Assembly (NCBI GenBank): GCA_945901855.1
Contig: CAMDLT010000013.1
Coordinates: 3,421 to 67,420 of the forward strand
Source: Asaia bogorensis
GTDB taxonomy: Bacteria; Pseudomonadota; Alphaproteobacteria; CACIAM-22H2
DNA: 64,000 bases
Direction: 5' to 3'
Shown here: in pieces, positions 28,658 to 51,020 of the stretch
Position numbering within the stretch: the stretch's first letter is position 1
Layout: every line of letters starts with the position of its first letter
Program-made: the position numbers and the translations under genes
The notes under the pieces: generated by a model
Seen by the model: only the letters and a program-made list of their open reading frames with translations
The model's database searches: none
Told to the model about the DNA's origin: nothing

Positions 28658-30169
28658 TTATCCTTGCCCGCCGCGCCGCTCGAGGCCGACATCGCACGAC
28701 ATTGCGCGCAGATAGAGCGCGCGGTAGTAGGGCTCGAGTTCTGCCGCTTGCGCGCGCAACGTCGCCATTTCGGCCGAAAGTTTGGGCGCCAGGGCGGCGA
28801 TTTCGGCATACAAAGCGCCTTCGTCGAGCGACAGCAATTTGCCGCTTTCGACCACCTGGCGACCGGCGACAAAAACGTCGCGCACGGAGGCGCCCGTCTC
28901 GCAATAGACCAGCTGGCGATCAAGATCGTTGAGCGGCACGTAAGCCGGATTGGCCATGTCGAGCAGGATGAAATCGGCCGCCGCGCCCGCCGCCAAAACG
29001 CCGAGCTGCTCGGGGCGTCGCGCCGCCCGCGCGCCGCCGACGTAGAGCGTTTCGAGGATCTCGGGCGCCGTGGGCCAGTCGCGCCAGTCGTCGCGCGTCA
29101 GATTGTGGACGAGCCCCGCCGCCTTTGCCGCCAGCCACAAATTATGCGTATCGTCGACCGTGGCCTCGTCGGTGCCGAGCGCAAGGGGCACGCCCGCGTT
29201 GCGCAGCCGCCGCCACGGCATGGTCCCGCTGCCCAGGCGCATATTGCACACCGGATTGTGCGCGACCGTGCAGCCCGAGCGCGCCAGTATCGCGATATCG
29301 GCATCGTCGACCCAGATCGCATGGATCACCAGCATGCGTTCGTCGAGCAGGTTCAGATCGTCGATATAGCGCACCAGCGACTTGCCGAACTTCTGCGCGC
29401 CGAACACGCGCTGGGTTTTGGTTTCCAGCACATGCACGAAGAACGGCAAATCGCGGCTGCGCGACAGCGCCGACAGACGCTTGAAATAGTCGACGGTCAC
29501 GCGGTGCGGTGCCGAACACGAGACCGCCGCCGCCAAGCGCCCCTCGGCCGCGCCGTGCCAAGTTTCGACCAGATGCGCGTAGTTCGCCATCAGCTCGTCG
29601 GCCGACTGGAGCGGCGCTTCATCCATCCTGCGGCGGAGGGACGAAGGCAGCAGTTCCGCCAAAAACGGCTGCTTGTCGTATTCGACGATGTTCTGCTGGT
29701 CGAGTGCCAGTGTCGCGCGCATGCCGCTGTCGCGATAGGCCGACATGACGGCGTCGATAGCACCGGGCGATACGGTCGGCACAAAAAATGCGTCGTCGAG
29801 CACGGTCGTAATGCCGAGCTTCAGCATTTCGATCGCGCCCAATGCCGTGCGCAGATAGGCAAGCCGCGCCGCGCTCTCGCCCGACGCCAAGGGCGGCACC
29901 TCGTAGAGCATGAAAATTTCGAGCGGATACGAATCGAGCGTGCCGCGCATCAGATTGCCGGGCGAATGGACATGCGCGTTGATCAGACCGGGCAAAGCCA
30001 GTTTTCCACCCGCATCGATGCGCGGCGCGTCGCCTGCGAGCATTTCGGCCGGCACGTATCCGACAGCCAAAAACTTTCCGTCGCGAATCGCAATCTCGCC
30101 GCTTACGATGCCGCGCGGACTTTTTGCATCGGGCAGGCGGACATTTGCGATCAGCAGATCGTTCGGCAT
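28658..30169 (-). CDS. amidohydrolase (cytosine/guanine deaminase, chlorohydrolase-like metal-dependent hydrolase) family protein
   Basis: 503 aa from MPNDLLIANVRLPD. Metal-binding N-terminus LPGLINAHVHSPGNLMRG (HxH), HAIW, and a C-terminal aspartate region GTDEATVDD. Confidence 0.8.
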   Translation of the reverse strand: MPNDLLIANVRLPDAKSPRGIVSGEIAIRDGKFLAVGYVPAEMLAGDAPRIDAGGKLALPGLINAHVHSPGNLMRGTLDSYPLEIFMLYEVPPLASGESAARLAYLRTALGAIEMLKLGITTVLDDAFFVPTVSPGAIDAVMSAYRDSGMRATLALDQQNIVEYDKQPFLAELLPSSLRRRMDEAPLQSADELMANYAHLVETWHGAAEGRLAAAVSCSAPHRVTVDYFKRLSALSRSRDLPFFVHVLETKTQRVFGAQKFGKSLVRYIDDLNLLDERMLVIHAIWVDDADIAILARSGCTVAHNPVCNMRLGSGTMPWRRLRNAGVPLALGTDEATVDDTHNLWLAAKAAGLVHNLTRDDWRDWPTAPEILETLYVGGARAARRPEQLGVLAAGAAADFILLDMANPAYVPLNDLDRQLVYCETGASVRDVFVAGRQVVESGKLLSLDEGALYAEIAALAPKLSAEMATLRAQAAELEPYYRALYLRAMSCDVGLERRGGQG

Positions 30170-38291: not shown

Positions 38292-41200
38292 TCACGCCCG
38301 CGCTTGCGGGTGCGTCGCACGCACCAGCGCTGCCGCCAACTCGGCAGCACGCACCGGCTTGGAAACATAATCGTTCATGCCCGCCGCCAGATACATCTCG
38401 CGGTCGCCGGACATCGCATTGGCGGTCAGCGCGACGATCGGCACCTGGCCGAAGGGCACCGGCAGCAGACGGATCTGGCGCGTTGCCTCGTCGCCGTCCA
38501 TCTCGGGCATCTGCGCGTCCATCAAGATCGCGTCGAAACGCTTGGCGCTGGCGCGGGCGACCGCCTGCACGCCGTTCGAAACAAATTCGTGGCGATGGCC
38601 CATGCGCGCCAGCATTTCGCCGACGACCATGCGATTGACCTCGTTGTCCTCGGCAACCAGCAGGTCGAGCGAGATGCTTGCGGCAGGCACAATCGGCGCC
38701 TGCGCGGCTTCGGGCGCAAGCGGCACCAAAGCGCCGAGCGGGATCGCAAAGCGGAAGGTCGAGCCCACCCCTTCCACGGACTCGACGCTCAAATCCCCGT
38801 CCATTAGACGGGCAAGTTCGCGCGATATCGCAAGGCCAAGCCCCGTGCCGCCGAAGCGCCGCGCGATGCTCTCGTCGGCTTGGCTGAAACGCTCGAACAG
38901 CCGGTCCAGCGCATCCGGCGCGATGCCGATGCCGGTATCCACGACCGAAAACACCACCCCGGCAGCGCCCGACGCGCACCGCCCCGTCGCCAGCGCGACA
39001 TTGACGCTGCCCGTTTGCGTGAATTTGATCGCGTTGCCGAGGAGGTTGAGCAGCACTTGGCGCGCGCGGGTTGCATCCACCGCCAATGCGCGCGGAACGT
39101 CCGGCGCCGCGCTTGCGGTCAGCCTCAATCCCTTTTTATCAGCCGTTGCCGACATCAGCGCTACCGCTTCGTCGATCAGATCTACCGGATCGACGATCCC
39201 GCGTTCGAGCCGCATTTCGCCCGACTCAAGTTTGGAATAGTCGAGAATGTCGTCGATGATGGTCAGCAACGCCGTCACCGAACGCTCGACCACCGCGACG
39301 TAGCCGCGTTGGCGCTCATCGAGTTCGGTGCCCGCCAGCAACTCGGCCATGCCCAGCACGCCGTTCATCGGCGTGCGAATTTCGTGGCTCATCGTCGCCA
39401 AGAAACGCGTCTTGGATTGATTTGCCCCCTCTGCCGCATCCTTGGCCGCGGCCAGATCGTTTGCGATGCGGCGCTCGTTTGTGACGTCGCGGTAGAGCGA
39501 GACGATCGAACCGTCCGGCCCGCGCGATTCGAGCACTTCGATCGTCGCGCCGTTGGTATCGACAAAAGCGAACCGCCCCGTGGGCGCTTGGCGGCGCGCC
39601 AGACGCTGGTGCAGATACGCCTCGCGTTCCGACGCCGTCACATGCGCCATGTCGACCGCAAGTTTGGCCGCCAGCACGTCGGCATAGCGCGCACCGGGCA
39701 CAAGCGACACTTGGGCGGTGGCCTCAAACAGTTCGCGGACCTTGCGATTGGTTGCGACGATGCGATCCTCGGCATCGCACAGCAAAAATCTTTGGCCATC
39801 GAATCGAGCCCGCTGTCGAGCGTGGCGCGCGCAAACTCGGCTTCGCGCCGCAGACGTTCGATGTCGCTCAGATCCAAAAGAGTCCCGAAGACGCGAACCA
39901 GTTCGCCCGACGGCCGCCGCTCGACCAAATAGTCTTCGCGCAAATGGCGGATCGAGCCGTCCGGCGCGACGATGCGATAGCTGCAATTGCCCCGGCCTGC
40001 AGGGCACAGGGTCAGATCGGGCCGCATCGCGCGGTCTTCCGGGTGCAAAAGCTGCCGGAAGCCATCGTCGCCTGCGCGAGTCGCCGGATCGACGCCGCAA
40101 ATCGCGCGCGTGCGCTCCGACGAGACCTGTATTCCCGATGCAGCGTCGAATTCCCACCACCCCAACGAACTGGTCTCCATCGCCAGTTCCAGGCGCGCGC
40201 GAACGTCTTCCAAGCCTGCCAGCAAATCCGCCTGCACGCCGTTCGACAATCTCAAGTTTTTTTCGGCTTTGATTTGCAGGGTGATGTCGCGGTCCGCGCC
40301 GCGATAGCCCCGAAACTGCCCGGATTCGTCGAAGATCGGCTTGCCCGATCGCGCGACCCAGATCGAGGCGCGGTCGGGCAACACTATGTGGACAATACGA
40401 TCCCGAAAACGCTCATGCCGACGCATGGTTTCGCCAAGCGTCGGTTCGCTGCCGTCAACCCCGTTTTTGGTGTCCCAGCCGCCCGGATGCTTGCCCATGC
40501 GCCAGGCCGGATCGACCCCGAGCGAACGGAACGAATCCGACACGTACGAAAAACGATGCGCGGAGTCGGTTTCCCAGACCCAGCCGGAGACAATTTCGGA
40601 GAAATCTGCAAAACGTTCGCGCTCGTCGGCCAGCGCGTCCATCGCGGTCAGGCGCTCGTCGGCCGTGCGCACCAACTCGCCGTGTTGGCGCGCTTGCACG
40701 CGTGCCGTTTGCCAAACCACCGCCAACAAGGCCGTGTAAAGTCCGAAAATCAGGACCGATATCCCGTATTCAAAAACGAGCAAACTGTCGTGGATGGTCT
40801 TGCTCGTCTGCGATACGTCGAAGCAAATCTCAAAAATTGCCTCGACGCGACCGTCCGATGCGCGGATCGGCGCGTAGCTGGCAACGATTTTGTCGAATCG
40901 ACGAGGTCCATCGAAACTGTTGATCAAGCGATCCACGTAGAGCGCGGTCGCAACGCGGCCTTCCAACGCGGATTGCAGGGCATTGAGGTTCGACAAACGG
41001 CGTCCCAGATCGGTCGCGACAGGCGCGTAAATCGTGCGCCCGGCAAGATCGAAAATCTTGATCGCAACAATGTCGGTTTCGCGCGCGAAGCGTCGCATCA
41101 TCGGCGCCACCGTCGCAATTTCGGGGCGTTCGGCCAGAGCTTGGTCGGATAAATTTTCAACCCCGATCGCAATGGCGCGAATCTGGGGCCAGATCGTTTG

Positions 41201-41380
41201 GGAAAGCGCGGTTGCAATCGTTTCGCCGGCCGCTCTGCCATACTCGGTCGTCGCCGCGTCGAACTGACGGTGTTTGATCTCGATTGCGACAACGATGGCG
41301 ATCAACGTCGCGACCAGTCCCGCAACCGCGAACGGCGCAAAGAACCTGACGCGCAGCAAACGATCTTGATTTTGCATCAA
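38292..41380 (-). pseudogene. hybrid sensor histidine kinase / response regulator (TM sensor domain, PAS, PAS, HisKA, HATPase_c, REC), interrupted by a -1/+1 frameshift near 39790-39810
   Basis: ORF 39638..41380 carries a TM-flanked periplasmic sensor and a PAS domain. ORF 38292..40160, in another frame, carries a PAS domain (FLLCDAEDRIVATN), the H-box SHEIRTPMNGVLGMAELL, the HATPase G-boxes and a REC domain (LLVAEDNEVNRMV...ILMDAQMPEMDG). The two frames join at the homopolymer CAAAAATCTTTGG (39791). Confidence 0.6.
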
Positions 41381-41399
41381 TAATGGAACTCACGCGACA

Positions 41400-41670
41400 A
41401 GGTAAAGTCGGTCGAAATTTTTTCGCGGCGAAGCTAGCCCTAATATCTCCTGCCCGCAATCGGTCAAACCACAAAATTAGACATTGGGTTAAAAATCTAT
41501 GTTCTTGATAATACCCTCTTAAAATGCTTCACTTTGGCCATCGTCCTGTCCGGACGTTTGCTGTTTGAAAAGTGAATATCGTACCGATTTCCGATTTTGT
41601 CGGCGAGGCGACATGCGTTTAAAATCAAATACATAAATAGGTAACTGTCGCCTCTCGTCGCCTAGAGTCG
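41400..41670. promoter_or_regulatory. 270-bp AT-rich intergenic island upstream of the sensor kinase, with phased repeats
   Basis: Roughly 40% GC versus the 65-70% background. Contains palindrome CGAAATTTTTTCG (41401-13), three TTAAAAT motifs, tandem CCGATTT x2, and three GTCGCCT copies at exact 10-bp spacing (41647, 41657, 41667). Confidence 0.4.
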
Positions 41671-41671
41671 C

Positions 41672-41968
41672 CTATTTCGCATCGAGCAATGTCTGGACGA
41701 TCACGGTCCATTCGACATCCAACGAGCCCGAGGCTTCCGGCTTGTTTGCCCGCTTATACCAGTAGCGTGCATTCGACGCATCGCCTTCGACGCGGTGGAG
41801 ATAGGCATGCACCCAATCGTGCTGCGCATCGCCCTCTTGCTGCTGGGCCAATTCGTGCGCTTGGTTCCACGCGCCGTTTGCCGCATGCCACAGCGCGGCA
41901 AGCGGGCGCGAGATGTCCTCGGGCGGTTGGGGTTGGGCCAGAGACTGGCGAAAGGCTTCGAGCTTCAT
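41672..41968 (-). CDS. hypothetical small protein (98 aa)
   Basis: Compact ORF with a protein-like composition (MKLEAFRQSLAQPQPPEDISRPLAALWHAANGAWNQAHELAQ...WVHAYLHRVEGDASNARYWYKRANKP). No other gene explains the region. Confidence 0.45.
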   Translation of the reverse strand: MKLEAFRQSLAQPQPPEDISRPLAALWHAANGAWNQAHELAQQQEGDAQHDWVHAYLHRVEGDASNARYWYKRANKPEASGSLDVEWTVIVQTLLDAK

Positions 41969-44557: not shown

Positions 44558-46279
44558 CTAGCGCTCAAAACCGGGGTTGGACTCCATGCCGACCAGACGC
44601 GGCAAGTTGGGCTCGATCGCCGCGACCGTTTTGCGCGATCGCAAATGCCGCGCGACCAAATCCCAGATCGGCTCGCCGCCGGCATCGCGCGCCTCGCCCG
44701 ATACCGGCGCCCACCCGGCCACCTTGTAGCGCCCGGATGGTTCGACATCGCGCCCGCGCACCTGCATATCGCGAATGCGTCGGCCCATCGCCGCAGTCGG
44801 ATCGCAAGCGTAGGTCAGCCCCCCGACCCGCACCATGTCGCCGCCCTGCTGCTGGTAGGGATCGGGATTGAACAGATTGTCGCACACGTCCTCGAGCACA
44901 GTCTTCAATGTCTCGCCGGTCATTTCGGTCAGCGTCGAAAACGGATACGTGATTGCAGTCTGGTCCAGCAGTTGGTCCATCGTAATCGCGTCGCCCGGCA
45001 GCACGGTGGTGCCCCAGCGGAAGCCCGGCGAAAGCGCAATCTCGGCGTCTTTTTCGGCCATCAGCGCGTCGCAGATCAACTGGTCGAAACTCCCGTTGAA
45101 ATTGCCGCGCCGGTAGAGCAAGCCCTCGCTGGTCGCAAGTTTCTCGCCGAGCTTCGCTGCATGCGGCGCACGGACCTGCTCGATCAATGCCGCCATCTCA
45201 AGGTCGGCCGGCAGCAAATCTGCGAACACTGGCATTAGCTTGTAGCGCCAGCCTGCAACACCGCCCGCCCCGACATCCAGATCCAGCACGCCCAAGAACT
45301 TGCCGTTCGAGCCGGCATTCGTCACGATCGTCTTGCCGCCGCCGTTAGCGACCACCGTCGGTGCCGGCATGCCATCATGCGTATGGCCGCCCAATATCGC
45401 GTCGATGCCGCGCACGCGGGCCGCCATTTTCAGGTCCACATCCATGCCATTGTGCGAGAGCAGGACGACGACTTTGGCGCCTGCGGCACGCGCCGCATCG
45501 ACCGTCTTCTGCATGTTTTCTTCTTGGATCCCGAAGGTCCATTCTTCGACGAAATAGCGCGGGTTGGCGATGGGCGTATAAGGAAAAGCTTGGCCAATCA
45601 CCGCCACTTTGACGCCGCCAATCTCGCGCTCGACATAGGCCTGGAAAACCGGATCGTTGAAATCGGCCGTCTTGATGTTCTGCGCGACAATGTCGATTTT
45701 GCCCGCAAAATCTTTCTCGGCGATCTCCAGTACGCGCGCATGGCCGTAGGTGCATTCCCAATGCAGCGTCATGACATCGACACCCAGGAGCTTGGCCGCA
45801 TCGACCATGTCCTGGCCTTTGCTCCAAAGGGATGTCCCGGAGCCTTGCCACGTATCGCCCCCATCGAGCAGGACCGCACCGGGACGCGAAGCGCGCACCC
45901 GTTTGACCAGCGAGGCCAAATGCGCAAATCCACCAACCTTGCCGTAGAGACGAGCCAAGCGCGCAAAATCTTCGTAGCCGAAGGCGTGCGCTTCATGGCC
46001 ACCGGGCCGGATGCCATAATGCGCCAACAGTTTGGCGCCTACCAGATGCGGCGGCTGGCCCGCCATCGTTCCGATGCCGAGATTGACGTTCGGCTCGCGG
46101 AAATGGACGGGCAGCAGCTGGGCGTGACAGTCGGTGAAATGCAGCAGCGAAACTTGGCCAAAACGCGGCATTTCATAGAGCCGGTCGGCCTCGCTCTGGG
46201 CGTGCGCCGGGTCGAAGGACAGCGCCATGCCAGCTGCCGACGCAGCGCCAAGCACTTGCAGGAACTCTCGGCGGTCCAT
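44558..46279 (-). CDS. soxB: thiosulfohydrolase SoxB (5'-nucleotidase / metallophosphatase family)
   Basis: Tat signal MDRREFLQVLGAASAAGMAL, 573 aa. Dinuclear metallophosphatase motifs (LLHFTDCHAQ, GGDTWQGSG, LSHNGMDVD, GGHTHD) and a C-terminal 5'-nucleotidase domain, within a sox gene context. Confidence 0.85.
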   Translation of the reverse strand: MDRREFLQVLGAASAAGMALSFDPAHAQSEADRLYEMPRFGQVSLLHFTDCHAQLLPVHFREPNVNLGIGTMAGQPPHLVGAKLLAHYGIRPGGHEAHAFGYEDFARLARLYGKVGGFAHLASLVKRVRASRPGAVLLDGGDTWQGSGTSLWSKGQDMVDAAKLLGVDVMTLHWECTYGHARVLEIAEKDFAGKIDIVAQNIKTADFNDPVFQAYVEREIGGVKVAVIGQAFPYTPIANPRYFVEEWTFGIQEENMQKTVDAARAAGAKVVVLLSHNGMDVDLKMAARVRGIDAILGGHTHDGMPAPTVVANGGGKTIVTNAGSNGKFLGVLDLDVGAGGVAGWRYKLMPVFADLLPADLEMAALIEQVRAPHAAKLGEKLATSEGLLYRRGNFNGSFDQLICDALMAEKDAEIALSPGFRWGTTVLPGDAITMDQLLDQTAITYPFSTLTEMTGETLKTVLEDVCDNLFNPDPYQQQGGDMVRVGGLTYACDPTAAMGRRIRDMQVRGRDVEPSGRYKVAGWAPVSGEARDAGGEPIWDLVARHLRSRKTVAAIEPNLPRLVGMESNPGFER

Positions 46280-46291
46280 TGCTCGCGGCCG

Positions 46292-46924
46292 CTACTTGTT
46301 GACCGGCGATGCGGGATCGAGCAACAACGCCATAATATCCTTCAATTGCGTCTCGTTGAGGATGCCCATATGGCCCGCGCGCGGCATATTCGAACACGCG
46401 TTCGAAGATTTCGAGTTGTAGATTTTTGCCCAAGTCGCGCGCAGCACGTCCGCCTCGGTGCCGCGCAGTTTGCCGTAACCAAGCAAACTGGGGCCGATCG
46501 TGCCGTACGAAATCTCGGATGCCGAGATTTGGTGGCAATTGTAGCAATTGCCGCCGCTGACCTGGGTCGCGCTGTCGGTCCAAGTGAGTCCGCGTCCCGA
46601 TTGCGCGATCGTCTCGCCGCGCCGCCAGTCACCCAGATACTGCCCGTCCGCCGGAAACTTCACGGCGGCAAGATTGGCCTGCTCAATCGCCTCAGCGCGC
46701 TTGGCGTTCGCAGGCGCAGCCGCAGCAACCGGATCGGAACAGAAGGCCTGCGTTTCGTCCTGCTGAAGCCGATCAGTTTTGACGGCGTTGCGGTCGCGGA
46801 AGCTCGTGCGGAGCAACTCGCCGAACGTATTGTCGTTCGCACCCGCCCCCCAGGAAGAACTCTGTGCCAGCGCATCTCCCGATAGAGCGAATACAAGCAC
46901 GACGGCGTAAAAAATAGCTTTCAT
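46292..46924 (-). CDS. soxX: monoheme cytochrome c SoxX
   Basis: Signal peptide MKAIFYAVVLVFALSGDALA, single CxxCH (GGNCYNCHQ), 210 aa, GGAG RBS. Located between soxA and soxB. Confidence 0.7.
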   Translation of the reverse strand: MKAIFYAVVLVFALSGDALAQSSSWGAGANDNTFGELLRTSFRDRNAVKTDRLQQDETQAFCSDPVAAAAPANAKRAEAIEQANLAAVKFPADGQYLGDWRRGETIAQSGRGLTWTDSATQVSGGNCYNCHQISASEISYGTIGPSLLGYGKLRGTEADVLRATWAKIYNSKSSNACSNMPRAGHMGILNETQLKDIMALLLDPASPVNK

Positions 46925-46935
46925 GGACCTGCTCC

Positions 46936-47757
46936 TTAGCGCTTGATGCCAGGTGTCTGGATTTCTTCGCCGTTCGCTGTCGCCCCCATGTAGACCGAAA
47001 GCGCGATCGTCGCGTCGGACGCATAGATCGGCTCGGGGAAACGCTGCTGACGGAAGCAATCCTGCAAACGCCATTGCATCGACCACATTTGGCCTGCACT
47101 GACGCGGTAGGCAGGCCAACTCGTCCAGCCCAACGCAGCGCCCTTGGTCGAGGGAATGAAAGGCAGTTCTTGAAGGCGGATGCGCTGGCCTTCCTGTCCG
47201 TGACATGTCGCACACGAAAAATCGTGCGGGCCGCCTTGGAAATAGAACATGCGCTTGCCCAGATCGAACATCGCCTTTTCTTTGGGATGGGTCGTCGGAA
47301 CCTTAACCGGCATGCCCTTCGATTCCGCCGAGATATAGGTCGCCAACGCCACCAACTCGTTCTTCTTCGGCGTATTGAAGCTAGCCGACACATGCTCGCG
47401 CACGTCGATGCCCTGCAGCGTCTCCATGCATGTGAGCAAGCGCGATTCGACATCTTGAACACGGTCGGTATCGGCAAAATAACGCGGCAACTGTGCGAAG
47501 GCGCCCTCGACTTTGCCGGGTCCCACCCCAAGATCGCAGGCGGCAAAAGAGGCATTGCGCGGACCTGCGGGTTTTTTCCACAGTTCCTCGCCCATTGCCT
47601 CGAACAACTCGGCCGGATTGCCTTGCTTGAGCTGTTCGCGATAGGCCTCGATCCCGCGCAGCGAATCGTCTTTTTCCTGGGCACCCAGCCCCGCCGCAAA
47701 CCCGCCAACCAAAGCAATGCCCGCGATCGCTGCGATCACCTGGAATCGAACCTTCAT
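46936..47757 (-). CDS. soxA: L-cysteine S-thiosulfotransferase subunit SoxA (monoheme type)
   Basis: Signal MKVRFQVIAAIAGIALVGGFAAG, heme motif CATCHG, SoxA-typical C-terminal segment WPAYRVSAGQMWSMQWRLQDCFRQQRFPE, GGAGG RBS. Confidence 0.8.
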   Translation of the reverse strand: MKVRFQVIAAIAGIALVGGFAAGLGAQEKDDSLRGIEAYREQLKQGNPAELFEAMGEELWKKPAGPRNASFAACDLGVGPGKVEGAFAQLPRYFADTDRVQDVESRLLTCMETLQGIDVREHVSASFNTPKKNELVALATYISAESKGMPVKVPTTHPKEKAMFDLGKRMFYFQGGPHDFSCATCHGQEGQRIRLQELPFIPSTKGAALGWTSWPAYRVSAGQMWSMQWRLQDCFRQQRFPEPIYASDATIALSVYMGATANGEEIQTPGIKR

Positions 47758-47797
47758 GCGCCTTCCTCCCCGTTGCCGTCCGCCCGACAATTCCGCT

Positions 47798-48109
47798 TCA
47801 AGCGATCGTTGCCTCATCGGTGCGCGATTCGTTTTTGTTGTCGGTCCATTTCACGACGACCTTGTCGCCGGCTTTGCCGCCACTGAACTTGAATGCGAAA
47901 TAGGGGTTCTTCGAAACAGCCGGCCCCCAACTCGACGTCATCACGACCTTGCCATTATGCGTCGCCGTCACTTCATTGATGAACCAAGCCGGAACGACAG
48001 CACCGGCGGCATCCAAGCGCTGGCCCGTTTCCATCTCGTGGTTCATCAAGACGCGAACTTCAGTCACGCCGTCGCGCGTCGCTGCGCGTATGCGCATGGG
48101 ATTTGCCAT
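47798..48109 (-). CDS. soxZ: thiosulfate oxidation carrier complex protein SoxZ
   Basis: 103 aa, MANPMRIRAATRDGVTEVRVLMNHEMETGQR...VPAWFINEVTATHNGKVV, the conserved SoxZ pattern. Confidence 0.85.
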   Translation of the reverse strand: MANPMRIRAATRDGVTEVRVLMNHEMETGQRLDAAGAVVPAWFINEVTATHNGKVVMTSSWGPAVSKNPYFAFKFSGGKAGDKVVVKWTDNKNESRTDEATIA

Positions 48110-48136
48110 TGTCCGATCTCCTTCTTGAAGACAGCT

Positions 48137-48604
48137 TCAGCCGCCGCAGCCGCCGAGCGTGACCTTGATCTCTTTGGTCGCCGAAAACACCTTGCCGCCT
48201 GCAACCGCAAGCGCCACCACGTTCGACGTCTGGCCCATTTTGACCCGCGTGGTCACGTCCGCAACGGCCTCCGGCAAAATGTCGAAGGTCGCCGCCAACA
48301 TGTTCGGGTTCTTTTCGACCATCAGCGCGAGGCGCGTCGTATTCGCGATCCGGCTGACGATCTGGATGGGCACAACCGCGCCGTTCTCGGCGATATCAGA
48401 AGCGATCAGTTGCAACTCGCCCGATGCTGTTGGCGTCTCGAGGCCGAGCGCTTTGAGCGTGTCGGGAATGTTCTTGCCCTCGAACGCGGCTTTGTTCCAC
48501 TCTGCCAAAGCGGCACGGCTGGGCAAAAGGCCTAGCGACACGAGAGCGGCAAACAGCCCTCCGCTCGCCAAGACCTGTCGGCGTTCTCCATTTACGTGGC
48601 TCAT
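48137..48604 (-). CDS. soxY: thiosulfate oxidation carrier protein SoxY
   Basis: Tat-like signal (RRQVLASGGLFAALVSLG) and the diagnostic C-terminal GGCGG substrate-carrying cysteine motif. Confidence 0.85.
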   Translation of the reverse strand: MSHVNGERRQVLASGGLFAALVSLGLLPSRAALAEWNKAAFEGKNIPDTLKALGLETPTASGELQLIASDIAENGAVVPIQIVSRIANTTRLALMVEKNPNMLAATFDILPEAVADVTTRVKMGQTSNVVALAVAGGKVFSATKEIKVTLGGCGG

Positions 48605-48625
48605 TCGCTTCTCCTTCGGGTCCCG

Positions 48626-49681
48626 TCATTTTTCCGGCGCACCGGCCAGAATCCAATCCACTAGCATCTTGGTGTCGGCGTCGTTCAAGTCGGGGTGCGG
48701 CGGCATCGGCAGATTGCCCCAAACGCCCTCCCCCCCATTGCGCACACGCGCGAACATTAACCCGGCGACATCTTGGTTACGATACTTCAAAGCGATTTCG
48801 TTGTAACCTGGCCCAATGATTTTCTGGCTGACGCCGTGGCAAGCAAGGCAGCCGGATTCCTGGGCTAACCGCATTGGCGCGCCGATCTCGTCATCGAAAT
48901 CGAACTCGCCCGGCCCCGTCACGAGCCCGCGCATTGGCCCAACAATGCGGTTCTGCAGGGCCAAATTGCCGTGTGCACCGCGCGCATGGTCGGGAAGGCG
49001 CGAAGCAATTTGCGCGTCGGACTTGCAATCCTTCATGCAGGCCTGCGCATTCGTGTCGGGCTTGATCGCCGTGTTGCCGAAGCCTTTGCCCGGCCACATC
49101 GCATGTTCGGTCGACATGCCGTTGCGATTGGGCAAACTTGCTTGGACGTCGCGAATCGTACGTTCGTTGAGCTCGAATTCGGCCGGAACAATGTCGGCCA
49201 AATTAAGCATGTACGCCACGACCGCATAAACTTCGTCGTCGGTCATCGATTTGGGTGCGGTCCACGGCATGGCGCGGCGCACATAGTCGAACAAGGTGGC
49301 GATCGTAGGCAGTTTCATAAAGGTCGAGCGCTGCGGATAATCGGGGCGCGCCAAGGTGGCGACGCGTCCGGTCTCAATGTCGCGCGCAGTGGTGCCACCG
49401 ACGATCGGCGTAAATGTGTGGTTGGCCTCGCCGAATGTACCGTGGCACGAGGCGCATTTTTCGTCCCATAGAATCTCGCCCTGCGCAACGGTCCCCCGGC
49501 CGCGCGGCAAACCCACAAAGTCGGGGCGCACGTCGATATCCCATGCTTTTATTTCGTCAGACGTAGCCAGACGTCCGATGCCTGGGAAGCGGTCGGCAGC
49601 CGATGCCGCCGCGGCCAACGTCAAGCCTAAACAAACAAGGAGCAATCGGCTAAAAGATCTGAACATTGCCGACCTCGCCAT
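48626..49681 (-). CDS. soxD: diheme cytochrome c SoxD
   Basis: Signal MARSAMFRSFSRLLLVCLGLTLAAAASA, two CxxCH motifs (CASCHG, CLACHG), directly downstream of soxC. ATG 49666 is an alternative start. Confidence 0.7.
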   Translation of the reverse strand: MARSAMFRSFSRLLLVCLGLTLAAAASAADRFPGIGRLATSDEIKAWDIDVRPDFVGLPRGRGTVAQGEILWDEKCASCHGTFGEANHTFTPIVGGTTARDIETGRVATLARPDYPQRSTFMKLPTIATLFDYVRRAMPWTAPKSMTDDEVYAVVAYMLNLADIVPAEFELNERTIRDVQASLPNRNGMSTEHAMWPGKGFGNTAIKPDTNAQACMKDCKSDAQIASRLPDHARGAHGNLALQNRIVGPMRGLVTGPGEFDFDDEIGAPMRLAQESGCLACHGVSQKIIGPGYNEIALKYRNQDVAGLMFARVRNGGEGVWGNLPMPPHPDLNDADTKMLVDWILAGAPEK

Positions 49682-51020
49682 TTGCCGCGATCTGCCAGGA
49701 TTGGATTGCATTGTTGTGGTAGATCGAGCGCGTACCGCGCACCTCGCGCAGCTGGCCGTAAGAGGGCTGCACATAGCCCGTCTCGTCGATCGCGCGCGAT
49801 TGGAGCAAGCGATCGCTGCCGTCCCAAACGAAGGGCAGCGAGAAGCGCGTTAGGCATTTGGAGAGTACCGGCGTTTGCAGCGCCGCCGTTGTCCAATTGC
49901 GCCCGCCATCGATCGACACATCGACACGCCGGATCCGCCCGCGCCCCGACCACGCCAGACCGCTGATCGTGTAAAATCCTTTTTCGAGCAACGCTTGGCC
50001 GCCTGATGGCGACGTGATCACCGACTTGCATTCCTGGATCGACGTGTATTGGCGGTGCGTGCCATCGGACATCAAATCGATGTAATGAACGGCCTCGTCT
50101 TTGGCGCCGTAGGGCTGGTCGCCAAGTTCGATACGACGCAGCCACTTGACCCACGATACGCCCTGCACGCCGGGCACCACCAGACGCAGCGGATAGCCGT
50201 TTTCGGGCCGCAGCATCTCGCCGTTTTGCCCGTAAGCGACCAGCACTTCACCAGCCAAAACCGAATCGAGCGGGATCGTACGCGTCATTGACGAACCGTC
50301 CGCACCTTCGGCCAAGACGAATTTCCCACGCGCAAAATCGGCGCCGCAATCCTCGAGCAGCGTGCGCAGCGGGACGCCCGTGAACTCGCTGCACGACAGC
50401 ATGCCGTGCGTATACTGCACGGTGGGAACAGCAACGTTTCCCCATTCCATACCGGTATTAGCACCGCATTCGATGAAACAAATCCGGGATACCGACGGCA
50501 GGCGCATCAGATCGTCAAGCGTATAGACTTTTGGCCGTCGCACGAGGCCCGGCACGGCGCCAGTCACCATAAACCGATGCCGACGCGGATCGATATCGTG
50601 CCAACCTTGATGATGGCGCTCAAAATGCAAACCTGAGGGCGTAATGATGCCGAACAAGCCCTGCAACGGCGCAAACGAGACACTCGACCCGGCCGTCTGC
50701 GTCAGGCCCGGACTTTGTCGCCGACCAAGTCCGCGTTCATAGCGCGATGGCGAACCGTAGGGTGTGGTTGCGACGGGTTTGCCAAGCGACGTGCTCCACG
50801 GCGGCAAATTGAGTATCTGCGAGTCGCCCGTTGCTGCTACAGCGGGACCCGCAGCGACAGCACCAGTCGAAACGAGTGCCGTTTTCAAAAAGGCGCGACG
50901 CCCTTTGGATATCTCGGAAATTTCGAGCGGCGACAGAAAATTCTCGGGCGCCCGGCGTAGGGCGCCGCGCGTTTCCAGTCCCTCACCCGCCGGGTTTTCC
51001 CCTGACGATATCTTGCTCAT
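49650..51020 (-). CDS. soxC: sulfane dehydrogenase molybdopterin subunit SoxC (sulfite-oxidase family)
   Basis: Tat signal KGRRAFLKTALVSTGAVAAGPAVAA, 456 aa. Sulfite-oxidase family Mo-domain motifs (GLHFERHH, FIECGANTG with the Mo-ligand Cys) and a C-terminal dimerisation domain. Confidence 0.8.
   Translation of the reverse strand: MSKISSGENPAGEGLETRGALRRAPENFLSPLEISEISKGRRAFLKTALVSTGAVAAGPAVAATGDSQILNLPPWSTSLGKPVATTPYGSPSRYERGLGRRQSPGLTQTAGSSVSFAPLQGLFGIITPSGLHFERHHQGWHDIDPRRHRFMVTGAVPGLVRRPKVYTLDDLMRLPSVSRICFIECGANTGMEWGNVAVPTVQYTHGMLSCSEFTGVPLRTLLEDCGADFARGKFVLAEGADGSSMTRTIPLDSVLAGEVLVAYGQNGEMLRPENGYPLRLVVPGVQGVSWVKWLRRIELGDQPYGAKDEAVHYIDLMSDGTHRQYTSIQECKSVITSPSGGQALLEKGFYTISGLAWSGRGRIRRVDVSIDGGRNWTTAALQTPVLSKCLTRFSLPFVWDGSDRLLQSRAIDETGYVQPSYGQLREVRGTRSIYHNNAIQSWQIAANGEVGNVQIF

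Follow-up and report, generated by a model that had tools for sequence, protein, structure and literature searches.

A large hybrid sensor histidine kinase gene is split between two reading frames in the window (the whole 64,000-nt stretch of DNA that was analyzed), and its orthologs in related strains are read in one uninterrupted frame. The break consists of a 1-nt deletion and an adjacent substitution in two neighboring codons. Judging by assemblies alone, we consider it very probable that this lesion is a real, recent mutation confined to one strain lineage. The allele is an ordinary recent strain-specific pseudogene allele, and nothing about it suggests a new mechanism.

Two minus-strand open reading frames, here called ORF A and ORF B, overlap at 39638-40160 in different frames offset by one base, just as the initial annotation had described. 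The frame of ORF A is open from 41392 to 39640 and that of ORF B from 40415 to 38294. Long overlapping ORFs are frequent by chance in DNA of 63-65% GC, and many are present in the window's ORF list; we therefore tested whether ORF A and ORF B form one gene. To do so, we joined them at the site proposed in the initial annotation, which gave a fused protein of 1,029 aa. Its domain order was a transmembrane (TM) segment, an extracytoplasmic sensor, a second TM segment, three PAS domains, HisKA, HATPase_c, and REC (Table 1). The extracytoplasmic region spans ~170 aa between both TM segments of the intact protein. The kinase has no Hpt domain, and neither an Hpt gene nor a partner response regulator gene adjoins the locus.

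Table 1. Features of the interrupted kinase gene and its upstream region (window coordinates, or residues of the fused 1,029-aa protein where indicated)
Feature	Position	Strand	Remarks
ORF A	41380..39638	minus	580 aa from TTG 41380; 579 aa from ATG 41377
ORF B	40160..38292	minus	622 aa
Upstream half	39638..41377	minus	TM1, sensor, TM2, PAS_9-like, PAS_3; last 49 codons (39787..39641) out of frame
Downstream half	38292..39789	minus, -1 frame	PAS_7, HisKA, HATPase_c, receiver; stop codon 38294-38292
Lesion	39790..39793	minus	Placed by DNA alignments and a codon alignment against intact orthologs
T5 run (A5 on plus strand)	39784..39788	minus	Five bases in all nine intact sequences
End of ORF A	39638..39650	minus	TGA 39640-39638 overlaps downstream-frame GTG 39641-39639 (GTGA); downstream-frame ATG 39650
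PAS_4-like stretch	fused residues 134-192		Faint match, sensor region
PAS_9 (PAS_9-like)	fused residues 268-367
PAS_3	fused residues 421-500
PAS_7	fused residues 525-639		Third PAS domain
HisKA (PF00512)	fused residues 657-721		E 1.5e-20; H-box MSHEIRTPMNG invariant across 8 sequences
HATPase_c (PF02518)	fused residues 769-882		E 1.3e-28; NLLGNAIKFT, DTGIGI, and GGTGLGL conserved
Response_reg (PF00072)	fused residues 908-1019		E 1.7e-23; D955 and K1008 columns invariant
AT-rich spacer	41381..41671	minus	290 nt, GC 0.41-0.47; between kinase and 98-aa gene
98-aa ORF	41672-41968	minus	Conserved in the window and eight contigs (L001, L086-L092)

When the fused sequence was searched against 5.8 billion proteins, it aligned with single proteins of 1,023 to 1,047 aa at 97-100% query coverage. 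The identity of these proteins to the query was 96% (P0001), 80% (P0002), 70% (P0003), or 44-49% (P0004 to P0007), and the distant orthologs were labeled Tagaea and Rhodospirillales. Because the fused protein aligns end to end with single proteins, we could confirm that ORF A and ORF B are halves of one membrane-bound multi-PAS hybrid sensor histidine kinase. The domain content of the fusion and its full-length alignment thus bear out the original reading of a large PAS hybrid kinase divided between two frames.

At the DNA level, eight syntenic contigs from different samples, with 75-97% nucleotide identity, carried an uninterrupted gene for a protein of 1,023 to 1,031 aa. Six of these intact genes were 96.5-97.0% identical to the window (L001, L088, L089, L090, L091, and L092), one was 82% identical (L093, on a 5.9-kb contig covering the downstream flank only), and one was 75.5% identical (L094). 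Between the L001 gene (96.9% identical) and the window, there was one gap in the whole coding region. A ninth, partial sequence (L086, Logan ERR12084911) was 98.9% identical over the first 2,016 nt and also read through the junction. Altogether, intact copies were found on contigs from at least eight samples other than those of the window lineage. The kinase genes formed three groups of ~97% mutual identity (the window with L086, L001 with L092, and L088 to L091), with L093 and L094 as outgroups. Also, the Logan contigs of L083 and L086, which come from two sequencing runs, both end at the match to window position 39363, in the H-box stretch HEIRTPMNG. This shared end is likely an assembly-graph branch caused by k-mers common to paralogous kinases.

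The neighbors of the kinase were the same in all relatives whose contigs span both flanks. These included, on one side, the 98-aa gene, a reductase, thioredoxin and DsbD-like genes, and a sox cluster and, on the other side, genes for RbsD/FucU, an amidohydrolase, an aldo-keto reductase, a DHDPS-like protein, GntR, and a TRAP transporter. A look-up of the flanking RbsD/FucU protein returned the same lineage and one short contig only. In a motif scan of reference-genome contigs with the fused protein, the matches listed were to the generic motifs HEIRTPMN, IIDDILDY, and MDAQMPEM and included no true ortholog; such generic kinase motifs swamp the scan, which is uninformative on the presence of orthologs there. 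Likewise, neither the junction pattern (N{5,6}) nor the adjoining conserved 29-mer had a match in the metagenome contig collection, where the samples are evidently not indexed, as L001 has both.

Comparison with orthologous intact kinases, which the initial annotation had proposed as a check, located the lesion precisely. A codon alignment of ten sequences (the window, L001, L088 to L094, and the partial L086) placed all nine orthologs in frame at the junction. Thus, a hybrid kinase in a single frame was found in the eight complete orthologs and in partial L086, and in the window, that frame is broken at 39790-39793. Intact orthologs read GCC GAA GGA TTT TTG/A (A-E-G-F-L), versus GCC AAA G-A TTT TTG in the window. 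One G has been lost from the GG pair (plus-strand C, 39790), and an adjacent G-to-A change (plus-strand C to T, 39793) replaces the otherwise invariant Glu529 with Lys. The two codons affected, 529 and 530, lie at the very start of the third PAS domain. The frame switch had been put at about 39791, within the plus-strand sequence CAAAAATCTTTGG (39783-39795), and the missing base does map there, to 39790-39793. It had also been ascribed to the A5/T5 homopolymer, and in this respect, the initial annotation needs correction. We rejected the run as the mutated element: the window has five bases there, as does each of the nine intact orthologs down to 75% nucleotide identity, and the run is thus ancestral and unchanged. 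The change from GAAGGA to AAAGA lies immediately 5' to it in gene orientation. A homopolymer beside a frame switch need not be its cause; here, the lesion could be assigned to the two adjacent codons by comparison with a strain of 98.9% identity.

As for the consequences for the protein, translation from the normal start would run into 49 out-of-frame codons and end at the TGA at 39640-39638. The predicted product is a 579-aa membrane sensor stub without phosphotransfer domains. The kinase-receiver part lacks a dedicated start and could, at best, be made in small amounts through re-initiation. Given a sensor-only stub and a kinase-receiver part with no start of its own, the allele is most likely a loss-of-function allele. 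The only plausible candidate sites of re-initiation for a stand-alone kinase-receiver fragment would be the GTGA overlap and ATG 39650. In intact orthologs, GTG 39641 and ATG 39650 are ordinary internal codons (..DMAHVTAS..). The gene caller placed the start of the downstream product elsewhere, at GTG 39677 (461 aa). No Shine-Dalgarno-like match stood out near the candidate re-initiation starts, and the true start also scored weakly. A re-initiated product would be devoid of sensory input and of ~50 residues of PAS_7. It is possible that re-initiation or rare ribosome slippage leaves some residual function.

We considered whether the missing base might be a sequencing or assembly artefact, which had been named as an option at the outset and would mean that the organism's gene is whole and that the gap is a consensus error. 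A 223-kb MEGAHIT-style contig (ENA ERZ27280227 k141_1968847) matches the window with 100% identity along 21,740 bp, and a Logan contig of ERR3719139, produced by a different assembler, does so along 11,041 bp. Both contigs have the deletion and code for precisely the same 579-aa product, and this exact agreement between the MEGAHIT k141 and Logan assemblies speaks against an artefact. However, the two data sets may be the same reads assembled twice, in which case the allele has been seen in one sample. A third copy was also reported, and it could represent the same contig in a deposit as a metagenome-assembled genome (MAG). We found no literature on the run and analysis accessions. Among the sequences compared, only the window lineage (ERZ27280227/ERR3719139) has the frameshift allele, and a lone 1-nt gap in an otherwise well-conserved gene, carried by a single lineage and possibly from one sample, is also what a consensus error would look like. 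Against this, indel errors in short-read consensus are rare, and a deletion with an adjacent substitution, in a GG pair within a nonrepetitive hexamer and with no long homopolymer, is not their usual signature. Additionally, over ~23 kb (28.3-51.5 kb) compared with eight relatives, the only window-specific indels were the kinase lesion and one in the upstream spacer. As there was no other coding indel, a generally error-prone assembly is improbable, and we regard an artefact as unlikely. A real mutation is the reading we prefer, and the pattern of substitution bears on its age. When differences between the window and L086 were polarized with the other two groups, the terminal branch of the window had 4-6 nonsynonymous and 7 synonymous changes (dN/dS of 0.19-0.29), and that of L086 had 0 and 8, respectively (dN/dS of 0). 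The window value is as expected for a whole gene, in line with the artefact explanation, and falls inside the range of 0.17-0.39 seen on the gene's other branches. It is also significantly below neutral (binomial P = 0.008-0.025), and a dN/dS this far below neutral means that the branch was mostly under constraint and that the disruption is recent. The excess of replacements on the window branch over that of L086 (4-6:7 versus 0:8) gave a Fisher P of 0.05-0.10. Three window-specific replacements are at residues conserved in all orthologs (A523G, E529K, and R655Q, the last a two-base change). These figures may be a weak hint of early decay of the window allele. Of the three options put forward in the initial annotation, recent pseudogenization is the best fit, with a lineage-confined break and a dN/dS that is still low.

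Other readings would keep the interrupted gene in use. Programmed or leaky -1 ribosomal frameshifting, another of the original options, would have tRNA-Phe slip back on U UUU U (GAU UUU UGC) and yield a full-length kinase (..AKDFLLCD..), regulated or at a low level, with the trans-frame peptide AKDFLLCDAEDR. The direction is the one needed, UUU re-pairs perfectly one base back within T5, and the restored protein would differ from its orthologs at two residues only. However, neither the strain at 98.9% identity nor any other ortholog has the shift (nine sequences in frame), and the site lacks an X XXY YYZ heptamer; the zero frame, GAU UUU UGC, permits only single-tRNA slippage on U UUU. Nor does the downstream 111 nt fold unusually well (minimum free energy of -35 kcal/mol versus a shuffle mean of -35.35, z = 0.11), as 108 of 200 shuffles equaled or surpassed it. 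With an unconserved shift, no slippery heptamer, and no stimulatory structure, programmed frameshifting is unsupported, and we consider it exceedingly improbable. Efficient transcriptional slippage requires a longer run than T5. Homopolymer phase variation, as at a contingency locus, was excluded because the T5 length is constant in the window and the nine intact sequences. A functional gene fission, with two working proteins, the sensor-PAS half as a membrane protein and a PAS-less kinase-receiver as a soluble one, the latter translated via GTGA (39641-39638) or ATG 39650, has in its favor the stop/start overlap and the nearby in-frame ATG, the 461-aa downstream product given by the gene caller from GTG 39677, and a complete kinase core and receiver. 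Yet the two-gene arrangement occurs in no relative, the candidate starts are plain internal codons of the intact gene with no outstanding Shine-Dalgarno-like match (the true start is weak too), the product would have no sensory input and would begin some 50 residues into PAS_7, and the 49-codon out-of-frame tail looks accidental. The protein clusters are relevant here as well, as separate conservation of the two ORFs as independent genes would have spoken against a single split gene. The 90% cluster of ORF A comprised three different proteins of 1,028 aa, along with a 545-aa fragment whose frame continues across the junction, and that of ORF B contained fragments from short contigs only, the one examined (P0153) beginning at the contig end. 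Separate conservation of the two ORFs is thereby excluded. Fission is, in our estimation, very unlikely. Overall, we see a slim chance that the allele is alive, through slight -1 slippage on U UUU U or GTGA re-initiation. If it were, a sensor-only membrane protein would exist alongside trace full-length kinase or an input-less kinase-receiver; signaling would then be rewired, not simply removed, and the locus would represent a gene fission caught in progress.

The kinase was originally described as sitting next to an AT-rich island. This stretch turned out to be the kinase's own 290-nt upstream spacer, the sole AT-rich stretch near the kinase at 150-nt resolution. Its length is much the same in all relatives with contigs that cover it, and it is thus not an island; it presumably comprises the promoter and 5' leader of the kinase. 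Between 38100 and 41750, promoter and terminator predictions were no more numerous than in shuffled sequence. Within the spacer, ~95 nt upstream of the kinase start, the window lacks one base of an A-run (41472-41476) compared with all eight relatives, among them L086 and L087 at 99% identity, so that the locus carries a second 1-nt deletion specific to the window. The 98-aa ORF beyond the spacer had no Pfam or NCBIfam match, and in L094, a 106-aa ORF occupies its position. Rfam and tRNA scans of the whole window gave no match, and no rRNA or tRNA genes were found.

Small disruptions were also observed elsewhere in these strains. In L001 and L092 (~97% identical), the amidohydrolase gene contains a 1-nt deletion at the match to window position 29543, and L092 has further ones at 28814 and 29087. 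The window's contig keeps this gene whole (503 aa, as called on L082), and in L001 it is called as two pieces of 223 and 253 aa. Strains of the species thus differ by small frameshifts that affect different genes. A few kilobases from the kinase, and syntenic in relatives, is a complete-looking sulfur oxidation cluster (~44558-51020, minus strand) with a SoxCD-like molybdoenzyme and cytochrome, SoxY, SoxZ, SoxA, and SoxB. The window SoxB shares 76-78% identity with its counterparts in Azospirillum and Tagaea MAGs. Together with the labels of the distant kinase orthologs, this indicates that the source is an uncultured, lake-type alphaproteobacterium of Rhodospirillales-like affinity, documented solely in metagenomes. 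In L088 (JGI 3300042502), soxB lacks 165 nt in frame, matching window ~45509-45673, and encodes 518 aa versus 573 aa. The gap lies between two CCGTCTT direct-repeat copies and may reflect either a repeat-mediated deletion or an assembly collapse.

Taken together, the kinase break is one of several small disruptions between ~97%-identical strains of a sulfur-oxidizing alphaproteobacterium. Its practical consequence concerns annotation: the protein collection that we searched holds separate 579-aa and 461-aa products for the split kinase, and both ORFs should instead be recorded together as a single frameshifted hybrid histidine kinase pseudogene rather than a pair of genes. Beyond annotation, the finding has little import.

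The intact kinase resembles hybrid kinases of the BarA/TorS/ArcB/RcsC type in its HisKA, HATPase_c, and C-terminal receiver. The kinase core and receiver gave strong partial matches to the TorS, BarA, ArcB, LuxQ, and RcsC NCBIfam models (E values of 1e-114 to 1e-81), and the closest solved structures were generic hybrid kinases, such as 6qrj (E 1.4e-64). No NCBIfam equivalog (TorS, BarA, ArcB, LuxQ, RcsC, or NahK) reached its cutoff, the best being TIGR02956 TorS (384 versus 676.5 bits). Unlike kinases of that type, the window kinase is without Hpt, falls below the equivalog cutoffs, and is interrupted; its N-terminal sensor and PAS array are confined to a small clade of uncultured bacteria that resemble Rhodospirillales. 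Overlapping -1 frames and a short T run at the junction recall the -1 sites of dnaX and IS3-family transposases as well as homopolymer contingency loci. In contrast to the former, the shift in the window is unconserved and has neither a slippery heptamer nor a stimulatory structure; in contrast to the latter, the T-run does not vary from strain to strain and is shorter than phase variation would require. The allele also resembles frameshift pseudogenes of two-component sensors in natural bacterial populations, which share the single-base indel in one lineage, the whole syntenic gene in close relatives, and the little downstream decay to date; the only distinction is that the window combines an indel with an adjacent substitution in place of a simple change in homopolymer length.
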